The notes: generated by a model not told the origin, from the sequence alone. Counted from the first letter of the stretch, positions 58,359 through 63,100 are shown. The stretch: 64,000 nucleotides of DNA from Candidatus Krumholzibacteriia bacterium (GCA_046484865.1 JAWOID010000061.1:15802-79801); one strand, 5' to 3'. Translations and numbers: made by a program.

Positions 58359-59984
58359 GTGCCGATCTGGCGTGCAGCGCTGCCCAGCCTCGTGTTCGTC
58401 GCCGGCCTGATGACGGCGGTCGCCGGCCTCGCCGTCGCCCCGGACGGCGCGCTGGCGGCCTCGACCGAGTTGCGGGGCTACTACGCGGCCGAGATCGCCA
58501 TGGAGATGACCGACCGCAAGTGGCACTTCGGCCCGCCGGGCGACAACGCCATGCCGAGCCACTATGCCGAGCTGCAGTTCTGGGCCTGGCCGTCGGACCG
58601 CTACGAGACCTTCATCAAGATCCGCGCCCTTTCGAACCGCGATGACGACCGCACCCCGGCCGTCGATTTCTACACGCCGCCCTGGCTGGCCGCGGAAGGG
58701 CACCTGAAGCTGCGGGGCGAGTCCTGGGAAGGCTTCATCTTCAGCCGTGAGAGCCGCTTCTACATCAACGACGAGCCGCTGCTCGGCCTGATCAACGACG
58801 GCAAGCTGAAGAACGACGACTGGGGCCCGAAGGCGCAGGGCGTGCGCCTGGACACCTGGGACCGCAACCTGCTCGGCATCCGCAACCTGGGCGGGACGTT
58901 GATCTTCAGCGACAACGGCGGCACCTTCCCGTTCGACGGTCGTGACGTGGCGAACGGCGAGGACTCGTGGATCCTGCGGCTGCGGCACCGGGCCTTCGGC
59001 GGCCGCATCGAATCCGGCTTCATGTTCCTGCGCAAGGACTGGACCGACACTTCCCGCGAGGATTTCGGGTCGCTGCTGGGTCTGATGTACAACAACGTCT
59101 ACTCGCTGGACGTGGCCTTCACGCCGCGCGACATCTTCGCCACCGGCGCCCAGTTCGGACCGGTGAACCTGGAGCAGTCGCGAATCACCTCGCAGGTCGC
59201 CTTCAGCGAGCGGCCCTACCACGAGACCGTCTTCAGCGAACCGCGCAGCCACGCCCGCGCCCTGGCGGTGGAGCTGCGGGAGGTCCACGTCGAGCAGGTG
59301 ACGCTGCACGCCTGGCACAACGACTTCGGCGAGGATTTCCGCAGCTACCTCTCCAGCCGCTTCGACGACGAGCGCCAGTACAACAAGGTACAGAACCACG
59401 TGGAGGCGATCTGGCTGCTGCCGCGCAAGGCGGTCACGACGAAGCTCGTGTACGACTCCCAGCGCAAGCGCGTGGCGGACGAGCCGGGTGGTGGGCGGCG
59501 GCCGTCCGAGGAGTGGTACGGCGAGCTGTACATGGAGTTCGTGAACGGTTTCAAGGCGCGCTTCGCCCACCGGCAGTGGCATGGCTTCGACGAGTCGGCC
59601 GAGATCTTCGACTTCTACACCTATCCCGACTGGTTCGCCGAGATCTCGGTGGAGAACTTCCTGGCCAAGGTCCGCCTGCAGGGCCGCATCCGGGACGCGG
59701 GCACCTTCCGGCAGGTCCGGGCCCTGGGTTTCGACATGAACGTCAACCTGACCGACCGGGTGAAGGGCTACTTCCGGGCGATGAACGTGGACGAGCACAC
59801 CGAGGCGCGCCACACGATCTTCGCCCAGCTGAAGTACGAACTGGGCGGGGGAGCCGAACTGTACTTCGAGTACGGCGATCCCGGACAGTCGGACAACCTG
59901 GTACGCACCGACTGGTTCGTGAACGAGGGCAACGGCGACAACCTGCGCGACCGGCTCAAGCTGCTGGTCAGGGCGTGGTTCTGA
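58359..59984 (+). CDS. Putative outer-membrane beta-barrel protein, family not recognised
   Basis: Signal peptide, aromatic-rich amphipathic strands, terminal LKLLVRAWF (BAM-type terminal Phe). Confidence 0.7.
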   Translation: MPIWRAALPSLVFVAGLMTAVAGLAVAPDGALAASTELRGYYAAEIAMEMTDRKWHFGPPGDNAMPSHYAELQFWAWPSDRYETFIKIRALSNRDDDRTPAVDFYTPPWLAAEGHLKLRGESWEGFIFSRESRFYINDEPLLGLINDGKLKNDDWGPKAQGVRLDTWDRNLLGIRNLGGTLIFSDNGGTFPFDGRDVANGEDSWILRLRHRAFGGRIESGFMFLRKDWTDTSREDFGSLLGLMYNNVYSLDVAFTPRDIFATGAQFGPVNLEQSRITSQVAFSERPYHETVFSEPRSHARALAVELREVHVEQVTLHAWHNDFGEDFRSYLSSRFDDERQYNKVQNHVEAIWLLPRKAVTTKLVYDSQRKRVADEPGGGRRPSEEWYGELYMEFVNGFKARFAHRQWHGFDESAEIFDFYTYPDWFAEISVENFLAKVRLQGRIRDAGTFRQVRALGFDMNVNLTDRVKGYFRAMNVDEHTEARHTIFAQLKYELGGGAELYFEYGDPGQSDNLVRTDWFVNEGNGDNLRDRLKLLVRAWF

Positions 59985-60042
59985 GCACGGAGCGAGACCG
60001 GCGACCGCATGGCCGCCCGGATCGTCCACCTGGGAGCCGACC

Positions 60043-62616: not shown

Positions 62617-62647
62617 CGCCCGGCCGCGCAAAGCGAGGATCCTGACG

Positions 62648-63100
62648 ATGAGGACGCCATCCCACCCGAGCCGGCCGCTGAGCCGCGTCGCCGGACTGCT
62701 GAGCCGTGCCGCCTGGCTCGGCGTCCTCCTGATCACCGGCTGCAGCTACATGAACGTCCTGCGCGACCGCTTGCCCACCCCGCACCGGGTGGACGACTTC
62801 GAGAACGCGGTCCTCTTCCAGTACGAGGCGCCCCAGGCGAAGCACGTGAACGTCTGCGGCAACTGGGAGGAGAACACCTGGTGCGGAACGGAGGGCACCG
62901 GGCGCTTCGACCACGCGATCGGCGCCATGCACGACGACGACGGCGACGGTGTCTGGGAGATCGTCATCCCGCTGAAGCCCGGCCGGTACCAGTACAAGTA
63001 CTCCATCGACTGGGGTCTGCGCTGGGAGCACGACCCCAACAACCCCCTCACCGACAGCGACGGCTTCGGCGGCTCGAATTCGATCCTGATCCTGCGCTGA
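62648..63100 (+). CDS. Lipoprotein with a single CBM48/AMPK-beta glycogen-binding domain
   Basis: Lipobox LITG-C; APQAKHVNVCGNW...GVWE...PGRYQYKY.ID...DPNNP...DGFGGSNS. Confidence 0.82.
   Translation: MRTPSHPSRPLSRVAGLLSRAAWLGVLLITGCSYMNVLRDRLPTPHRVDDFENAVLFQYEAPQAKHVNVCGNWEENTWCGTEGTGRFDHAIGAMHDDDGDGVWEIVIPLKPGRYQYKYSIDWGLRWEHDPNNPLTDSDGFGGSNSILILR

Follow-up and report, generated by a model that had tools for sequence, protein, structure and literature searches.

At positions 58359-63100 of a 64,000-nucleotide stretch of DNA from a Candidatus Krumholzibacteriia bacterium (GCA_046484865.1 JAWOID010000061.1:15802-79801; the whole stretch is called the window here, and coordinates are window positions) lie genes for a 541-amino-acid (aa) protein that we call barA, an 842-aa protein that we call barB, and a lipoprotein. 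We found that these genes are part of a conserved five-gene unit, present in several phyla and fixed in its order: a surface protein with a C-terminal sorting domain, a PorV-like barrel, barA, barB with its CBM48 modules, and a CBM48 lipoprotein. The reading that we favour, and to which we give roughly an even chance on the strength of sequences and structural models, is that the unit is dedicated to outer-membrane capture and uptake of alpha-glucan (starch, glycogen, long maltodextrin), probably without TonB. A preliminary description of the region had taken barA, barB and the lipoprotein for a maltodextrin import complex. Its barrels, their paralogy and the link to starch have stood up; its scope was too narrow, as it missed the five genes and the several phyla, and the surface orientation that it gave the CBM48 modules is probably wrong.

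A five-gene unit conserved in several phyla

The open reading frames (ORFs) of barA, barB and the lipoprotein are present exactly as first described, with the same coordinates, lengths, AWF and YRF ends and signal sequence. The GC content of the window is about 70%, and third-position GC in the three frames is 0.89-0.94, which identifies them as genuine genes as opposed to chance ORFs of a 70% GC genome. The stop codon of the PorV-like gene abuts the start codon of barA, and barA and barB are each single-copy in the genome. Scanning 57000-64000 for promoters and terminators gave no match, although such a scan is uninformative at 70% GC.

We found 93 homologues of barA and 66 of barB, 65 of the latter with CBM48 Pfam domains. 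Within the phylum, 151 genomes were sampled. barA was present in 61 of them and the barB barrel in 64, with 60 having the two together; barA was alone in one genome, and four genomes had weak barB matches only. The two genes are almost always on one contig and one strand, 0.4-2.5 kb apart. Their joint occurrence in 60 of the 151 genomes indicates an accessory pair that travels together. Twelve loci were fetched, and the PorV-like gene, barB and the lipoprotein gene were found in all 12, with the order conserved. barA was detected by tblastn in 11, the twelfth having an unmatched gap of 1.5 kb at the barA position.

To reach more distant relatives, a barrel-only profile was run against 1.84 billion representative proteins and matched 248 at E<=1e-3. 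The best 150 of these included 81 of at least 600 aa, which became a set of 69 full-length relatives of barB once 12 close relatives had been dropped. AMPK1_CBM was found on 68 of the 69 proteins scanned. Therefore the fusion of CBM48 to a barrel is the standard architecture of the family.

A scan of metagenome-assembled genomes (MAGs), one per species, provided 75 further loci on which local hidden Markov model (HMM) searches were run. The barB barrel is present in 61 of the 75. In these 61 loci barA lies upstream on the same strand in 56; of the five without it, four lie at the end of a contig. A PorV-like gene is found in 48, and the loci missing it all have less than 2.8 kb of sequence upstream. 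The lipoprotein gene follows barB in 50 of the 61; of the 11 loci without it, eight lie at a contig end, and two of the other three have a CBM48 domain in an ORF outside the search filter. All four genes from PorV-like to lipoprotein are present in 39. Phylum labels were taken from the MAG record titles, which name Krumholzibacteria, Eisenbacteria, Zixibacteria, Cloacimonadota, Gemmatimonadota and Latescibacteria; titles giving Fibrobacteraceae or Patescibacteria are possibly mislabels.

barB and the lipoprotein carry CBM48 modules

The two CBM48 domains of barB and the single one of the lipoprotein, both claimed in the preliminary description, were recovered as Pfam matches above the cut-offs. 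barB matches AMPK1_CBM (PF16561) in two stretches, with E 5.7e-31 and 107 bits against a cut-off of 26.8, and CBM_48 (PF02922) with E 3.7e-22 and 78.9 bits against a cut-off of 22.4. The lipoprotein is just over the same two cut-offs, at 27.7 bits (E 3.3e-6) and 24.4 bits (E 3.8e-5), respectively. Sequence matches of barB in the PDB are exclusively to CBM48 modules, chiefly of AMPK beta and GH13 enzymes.

The first module of barB, CBM48-1, is covered by the NCBIfam GlgB N-terminal profile (barB residues 55-130), and in structural searches with VIA it matched CBM48 domains such as 6b2e_B (Z 11.2, root mean square deviation (rmsd) 1.6). CBM48-2, which is the module kept in single-CBM forms of barB, aligned to the AMPK beta-1 CBM chains 4yef and 1z0m with E of about 1e-12. 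In this alignment W (fneW/fnnW), K (yKf), W (dgnW/dgqW) and N (tNs/vNn) are identical in barB. We take these four residues (Trp, Lys, Trp and Asn) to be the ones by which the AMPK beta CBM contacts sugar. The four columns are invariant among the relatives of barB and among those of the lipoprotein; in the barB family N205, W207, Y235, K236, D240, G241, W243, N261 and S262 are all invariant. Judged by the key residues that they keep in alignment with the AMPK beta CBM, the modules of barB are genuine glycogen-binding-type modules, and glucan binding is predicted for them.

In an alignment of 35 orthologues of the lipoprotein, Cys1, R10, P14, N45, W47, Y85, K86, D90, W95, N113 and S114 are invariant. 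The lipid-bearing end is joined to the module by a tether, C-x3-7-[IV][RK]-x-R-[LV]-P-x-P (62741-62785, residues 32-46), that runs directly into CBM48 and whose R and first P are invariant in 35 of 35 rows, across phyla. So short and conserved a tether is unusual for lipoproteins and suggests a specific docking element or a sorting signal. Only CBM48-type profiles matched the lipoprotein; no SusD or SusF_SusE Pfam match was seen at E<=0.1. Complex prediction with barB residues 46-842 and the mature lipoprotein returned an ipSAE of 0.00 in both runs, which had no controls and give no verdict.

The number of CBM48 modules on each protein varies among loci. In the window two are on barB and one is on the lipoprotein, and loci of family f4 have one and one. 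Where barB has a single CBM48, as in family f6 and the Eisenbacteria loci, the downstream lipoprotein often has two (L015 12340-13089, L016 7343-7990, L044, L046, L050 and others). Modules thus seem to have moved between the barB N-terminus and the lipoprotein, although the pattern is not universal. Such an exchange would fit the location of both proteins in one compartment.

barA and barB are predicted to be large barrels that lack a plug

AlphaFold2 models were built on alignments of 41 relatives of barA and 44 of barB. In the barA model (mean predicted local distance difference test score (pLDDT) 85.5, predicted TM-score (pTM) 0.78) the mature protein forms a closed beta-barrel, with 24 membrane strands between residues 35 and 540 when counted from the DSSP string. 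In the barB model (mean pLDDT 84.2, pTM 0.69) the C-terminal 550 or so residues form a closed barrel, of 22 strands counted in the same way between residues 294 and 841. This barrel is preceded by beta-sandwiches at 51-137 and 180-266 and by two low-confidence linkers, of which the 25-aa linker directly before strand 1 has a pLDDT of 33-59 and is probably flexible. The preliminary description had proposed that the C-terminal regions are transmembrane-type barrels, and the models agree, with about 24 and about 22 predicted strands.

Foldseek returned generic large barrels only for both proteins. In an exhaustive VIA search the top matches of barA were the usher pores PapC and FimD (Z 16.3 and 16.1, 370 and 367 residues aligned, model 35-541). 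The barB barrel matched Cir (Z 15.7, rmsd 4.0, 372 aligned, model 292-842 against chain 162-662), FyuA (Z 15.7) and the SusC-like BT1762 (Z 15.1). Thus in these models the barB barrel looks like that of a TonB-dependent transporter without its plug, and barA looks like a plug-less usher pore.

The likeness of barB to TonB-dependent and SusC-like transporters extends to its setting, a glycan-utilisation locus in which a lipoprotein gene is adjacent as in susC/susD. However, the VIA alignments cover only the part of the transporter chains that follows the plug, and in barB the CBM48 modules occupy the position of the plug. We found no match of barB to Plug (PF07715), TonB_dep_Rec (PF00593) or LamB (PF02264) at E<=0.1, and in the barB-family alignment, judged by eye, there was no conserved segment between signal peptide and CBM48 that could be a TonB box. 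Four or five ordinary plug-bearing TonB-dependent transporters are encoded elsewhere in the genome; therefore barB is not simply this lineage's own form of the family. We also considered that a CBM48 module could plug the barrel from within, in the way that LptE does in LptD or the usher plug in its pore. From SusCD the unit further differs in its lipoprotein, which is a single CBM48 and does not have the SusD fold.

Similarly, the superposition of barA on PapC and FimD is consistent with the count of 24 strands, but barA lacks the plug, the N- and C-terminal periplasmic domains and a usher Pfam match, its identity to the ushers is 7-9%, and no pilus or chaperone genes are near it. barA had no Pfam or NCBIfam match at E<=0.1 and no PDB sequence match at E<=10.

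In the ESM Atlas, whose scores are leads and not alignments, the named family nearest to barA is DUF6029 (feature score 0.96; structure TM 0.71/0.79 over 460 residues). DUF6029 is close to barB too (0.94), and the barA and barB families are also linked to each other. Membership in DUF6029 (PF19494) was rejected, as its HMM matched neither barA nor barB at E<=0.1 and nothing in the genome at E<=10. Other structural neighbours in the Atlas have AhpC/TSA (with DUF6029, commonest in Krumholzibacteriota), CBM9_1 (with DUF5916), SLH or CarboxypepD_reg fused N-terminally to large barrels. barA and barB share with the DUF6029 and the CBM9-bearing DUF5916 barrels this Atlas likeness and the N-terminal fusion of soluble domains; they differ in that no HMM matches, and the DUFs themselves are uncharacterised. 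A soluble domain joined to a large plug-less barrel may be a general, unstudied design.

barA and barB are distant paralogs

The preliminary description had read shared motifs as a hint of paralogy. The motifs are NDEPLLGLI (136-144) and EYGDP (504-508) in barA, and LDDPLNLLG (385-393) and AYGVDP (786-791) in barB, and several of their columns are invariant or nearly so: P140, L141, L144, Y505 and G506 in the barA family, and D387, G788, D790 and P791 in the barB family. BLASTP of barA against barB found no similarity, and hhalign with shallower profiles of the two families missed the relationship (probability 6%). We then compared deeper barrel-only profiles, of 82 rows for barA against barB-barrel rows, in which divergent orthologues from the fetched loci were included. 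With these the probability was 96.2% (E 2.3e-9) over 168 columns (barA 37-226, barB 295-474), and in global mode 97.9% (E 3.1e-12) over 456 columns. Negative controls were far lower: the reversed barB profile gave 0.24%, and a PorV-like profile gave 2.4% against barA and 2.1% against barB. The comparison brings both motifs into register: within the long third loop NDEPLL is paired with DDPLNLL, and EYGD is matched to AYGVDP following the penultimate strand. Profile comparison at 96-98% against controls of 0.2-2.4% turns the hint into a finding that barA and barB are distant paralogs.

The CBM48 modules are most simply placed in the periplasm

In the barB model the odd-numbered strand connections, taken from DSSP, are 2, 10, 31, 16, 27, 9, 32, 15, 6, 5 and 45 residues long, and the even-numbered ones are 4, 4, 5, 2, 5, 2, 2, 7, 4 and 2. 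barA shows the same alternation of long and short, with one 20-residue turn excepted. Classic outer-membrane barrels have long extracellular loops and short periplasmic turns. Given this parity, and a C-terminal aromatic strand that ends in the periplasm, barB strand 1 would start in the periplasm too. By the general rule for outer-membrane proteins the N-terminus, and therefore the CBM48 modules, would be periplasmic, and this is where the barB modules are most simply placed by the model. In five rows of the VIA output, the alignment of CBM48-1 to GH13 structures extends to residues 696-698 or so, in a short turn of the periplasmic side, which is an indirect hint that CBM48-1 sits at the periplasmic rim in the model.

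We considered the opposite arrangement, in which barB and the lipoprotein expose their CBM48 modules at the cell surface, as in SusE/F, and a heteromeric barA/barB porin receives starch from them. This would need the linker to be threaded through the barrel and the lipoprotein to be flipped. Polymer-binding CBMs would be most useful outside the cell, and Sus systems pair their barrels with surface lipoproteins. Wide plug-less barrels of some 22-24 strands could let a linker pass, the linker before barB strand 1 being of low confidence and probably flexible, and the conserved proline-rich tether of the lipoprotein, of some 12-16 residues, could serve docking or threading. Loop and turn parity places the barrel N-terminus in the periplasm, however, and the residues that follow the lipoprotein Cys are basic or hydrophobic and not acidic. 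In Bacteroidota, acidic residues after the Cys are the surface-export signal of lipoproteins, a rule that comes from another phylum. In addition, the lipoprotein lacks a SusD or SusE/F Pfam match, and the role of binding outside the cell would already be filled by a separate protein with a type IX secretion system (T9SS) sorting domain. Taken together, we regard a surface location as somewhat unlikely.

The preliminary description had also given the lipoprotein a role analogous to SusD/E. The periplasmic placement of the barB modules weakens that idea, and with neither a SusD fold nor a SusE/F match we consider the analogy doubtful.

A PorV-like barrel and a surface protein precede barA and barB

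The protein encoded directly upstream of barA matched NCBIfam PorV_fam (NF033709) with E 3.1e-13 and 50 bits (residues 32-294 against 8-324 of the 326 profile positions) and PorVQ2 with E 3.9e-11. There are about 10 PorV/PorQ-family loci in the 4-Mb genome, on several contigs, and seven of them are above the curated cut-off, which suggests many dedicated pairs of cargo and anchor.

The surface protein contains Glucodextran_C (6.6e-29), CarboxypepD_reg and Big_1 Ig-like repeats, together with an N-terminal domain of about 180 aa that is common to small orthologues. Its last 138 aa matched CHU_C (3e-4, 21.3 bits) and FlgD_ig (1.7e-3, 18.7 bits), and the orthologous sorting domains in loci L044 and L093 reach the FlgD_ig cut-off with 29.7 and 32.8 bits. 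Upstream of the PorV-like gene, 42 loci have an ORF, and in 40 of them this ORF has a related sorting domain at its C-terminus. In Cloacimonadota-type loci the surface protein is only about 380 aa long, and it has just the N-terminal domain and the sorting domain in common with the giant protein. A SprA-like gene is present elsewhere in the genome. The gene pair resembles T9SS cargo and its PorV/PorP-like anchor in Bacteroidota, in that a gene for a protein with a FlgD_ig/CHU_C-type C-terminal domain directly precedes a PorV-family gene. It differs in the sub-cut-off match of the PorV-like protein and in its setting, a larger unit that also encodes barA, barB and a lipoprotein.

This arrangement raises a further explanation, namely that the barrels are a platform for assembly or anchoring of the surface protein, and perhaps of the lipoprotein, as an accessory module of the T9SS, while uptake of the sugars is left to other porins or TonB-dependent transporters. 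The abutting stop and start codons are in its favour, as are a PorV-like gene before barA in every locus with at least 2.8 kb upstream, the sorting-domain gene that so regularly precedes it, and the top structural matches of barA, which are protein-translocation pores. PMC9143113 describes PorP/PorV-like barrels as anchors of type B sorting-domain cargo in Bacteroidota, which also counts for a platform. It would leave unexplained, however, why 68 of 69 barB relatives carry CBM48 and why the unit includes a CBM48 lipoprotein. A SprA-like translocon is encoded elsewhere in the genome, which also has many proteins with sorting domains and about 10 PorV paralogs that are not accompanied by such barrels. 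barA and barB each have one copy, linked to alpha-glucan genes. We therefore consider a platform decidedly unlikely.

The unit lies among genes for alpha-glucan breakdown

Genes for a MalEFG-like importer lie divergently from the unit in the window. Just beyond the window we found a GH13 protein with three CBM48 modules, a second GH13 protein, MalK, an amylo-alpha-1,6-glucosidase and the remainder of a protein with two CBM20 modules. Among the related loci, 29 are 12 kb or longer; one or more alpha-glucan genes occur in 28 of these and an orthologue of the GH13 gene in 19; orthologues of MalEFG flank the unit in related loci. The maltodextrin or starch setting proposed in the preliminary description is therefore well founded, the GH13, MalEFGK-like and debranching neighbours being strong and conserved.

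The full ORF of the CBM20 protein has a Sec signal peptide and is without a lipobox or C-terminal sorting domain. The protein with GH13 and three CBM48 modules likewise has a Sec signal peptide and no lipobox, and no sorting-domain family matched it. This suggests that both proteins are periplasmic.

These neighbours also bear on the idea that the unit exports alpha-glucan, as capsule or exopolysaccharide, in the manner of PgaA, BcsC or AlgE. Synthase-dependent exporters combine an N-terminal periplasmic polysaccharide-binding domain with a barrel, an architecture that the CBM48-barrel fusion would mirror by analogy. A passage in PMC9603273 suggests DUF6029, speculatively, as a polysaccharide secretion porin. 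Export is disfavoured because the neighbours are catabolic or serve import: two GH13 proteins, the amylo-alpha-1,6-glucosidase and the MalEFGK-like importer. Furthermore, there was no glycosyltransferase, synthase or Wza-type gene among the Pfam matches of the ORFs from 31.5 kb on and of 19 kb past the window. We consider export highly improbable.

A model for capture and uptake of alpha-glucan

Our favoured reading of the unit as a route for capture and uptake would work in four steps. First, the T9SS would export the sorting-domain surface protein, the PorV-like barrel would hold it outside the cell, and polymer would be bound there. Second, the plug-less barrels of barA and barB would form an outer-membrane conduit for alpha-glucan chains, probably without energy from TonB. 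Third, the CBM48 modules of barB, and most simply those of the lipoprotein too, would be at the inner mouth of the channel, where by binding the incoming chain they could bias its movement inwards by capture, as a ratchet, before it is passed to the CBM48- and CBM20-bearing GH13 enzymes and the debranching enzyme. Fourth, the breakdown products would enter the cell via the adjacent MalEFGK-like ABC transporter, a step suggested by the families present. We infer channel function and association of barA with barB from predicted fold and synteny; for the heteromeric porin, it is solely the conserved adjacency of the two genes that points to it.

Several observations weigh against this reading. 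The genome encodes secretins, so the GH13 and CBM20 proteins that have only a Sec signal could be secreted. No extracellular amylase was identified, so the model requires that whole chains are threaded. The PorV-like protein, at 50 bits, falls below the NF033709 cut-off of 90, and the sorting-domain scores of the surface protein in the window fall below the Pfam cut-off of 27. Autotransporter-like threading of the N-terminal linker through the wide barrel would break the periplasmic rule on which the orientation depends. In Bacteroidota, a related phylum, lipoproteins exposed at the surface are common.

Known Gram-negative routes for glycans across the outer membrane are small specific porins (LamB, CymA, ChiP) and TonB-powered transporters with surface lipoproteins (SusCD), and the unit fits neither. 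With LamB and CymA it would have in common the passive passage of alpha-glucan oligomers that feed a MalEFGK-type importer, and the barB barrel can be superposed on these porins in part (1mpr, Z 13.5 over 298 residues; 4d5b, Z 13.3). LamB and CymA, however, have 18 and 14 strands and no fused CBMs, unlike the paralogous pair of barA and barB, with about 22-24 predicted strands, CBM48 and the accompanying genes for a PorV-like barrel and T9SS cargo.

No description of the unit, nor of such a larger unit for the T9SS, was found in the literature outside supplements and subscription journals. PMC6851124, which lists CBM48 on Fibrobacter GH9 enzymes, proved irrelevant to the unit. No annotation exists for the protein families, and the architecture is a new one; with the function that we infer there is a real chance of a new mechanism. 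In its strongest form, which we think unlikely, the unit would be an unrecognised class of importer, in which a hetero-complex of barA and barB threads whole chains without TonB, a periplasmic ratchet is provided by CBM48 modules that are fused to the barrel or lipid-anchored through the R-L-P-x-P tether, and a T9SS-delivered capture protein is held on a PorV-like barrel.

Uncultured phyla that bear the unit abound in sediments, soils and digesters. If the unit is an importer, it would explain starch and glycogen uptake in these lineages, give functions to two sizeable unannotated protein families and could show that polymer import without TonB exists. The five genes also provide a concrete marker set for alpha-glucan use in metagenomes.

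Other features of the region

The features of the unit and of the rest of the window are listed in Table 1.

Table 1. Genes and protein domains of the five-gene unit and of neighbouring parts of the window
Feature	Position	Strand	Remarks
Surface protein, giant, secreted, ~1970 aa	51561-57476	+	Signal peptide; Pfam domains; start codon approximate
PorV/PorQ-like outer-membrane barrel	57467-58357	+	296 aa; NCBIfam PorV_fam, PorVQ2
barA	58359-59984	+	541 aa; signal peptide and predicted ~24-strand beta-barrel; no soluble domain or Pfam family; ends ...LLVRAWF
barB	60043-62571	+	842 aa; signal peptide, CBM48-1, CBM48-2, flexible linker, predicted ~22-strand beta-barrel; ends ...LRAQYRF
CBM48-1 of barB, residues ~50-140	60190-60462	+	AlphaFold2 strands 51-137, pLDDT ~91-95
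CBM48-2 of barB, residues ~180-267	60580-60843	+	AMPK1_CBM best stretch 194-267
Barrel of barB, residues 294-842	60922-62568	+	Aromatic C-terminus ...YRF
CBM48 lipoprotein	62648-63100	+	150 aa; lipobox ...LLITGC, Cys32; Pfam matches
Secreted 2xCBM20 protein, C-terminal part	63276-63998	-	Pfam CBM_20 1.5e-15; gene extends past window end
MalEFG-like ABC importer	47937-51154	-	Divergent from the unit; three genes
Solute-binding protein of importer	49847-51154	-	Pfam SBP_bac_8 8.5e-20
Two permeases of importer	48917-49822 and 47937-48902	-	Pfam BPD_transp_1 1.1e-18 and 1.3e-14
Multicopper oxidase, FlgD_ig-type C-terminus	31548-33947	-	
ORF with twin-arginine translocation (TAT) signal/Rieske-N-like segment (residues 275-302) and NAD-dependent epimerase domain	36269-38257	-	True start probably internal to frame
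Big_5 protein, FlgD_ig-type C-terminus	38301-41078	-	
1339-aa protein, FlgD_ig-type C-terminus	40726-44745	-	
LVIVD-repeat protein, FlgD_ig-type C-terminus	45053-47536	+	

Beyond the window, the gene for a 994-aa Ser/Thr protein kinase with tetratricopeptide repeats adjoins the amylo-alpha-1,6-glucosidase gene (L010 11653-14637, G000:C145), and this kinase is a possible regulator of the locus. Within the window, large secreted proteins with FlgD_ig-type C-terminal domains are clustered at 31548-47536, and by these domains the genome appears to rely heavily on a T9SS-like export route.

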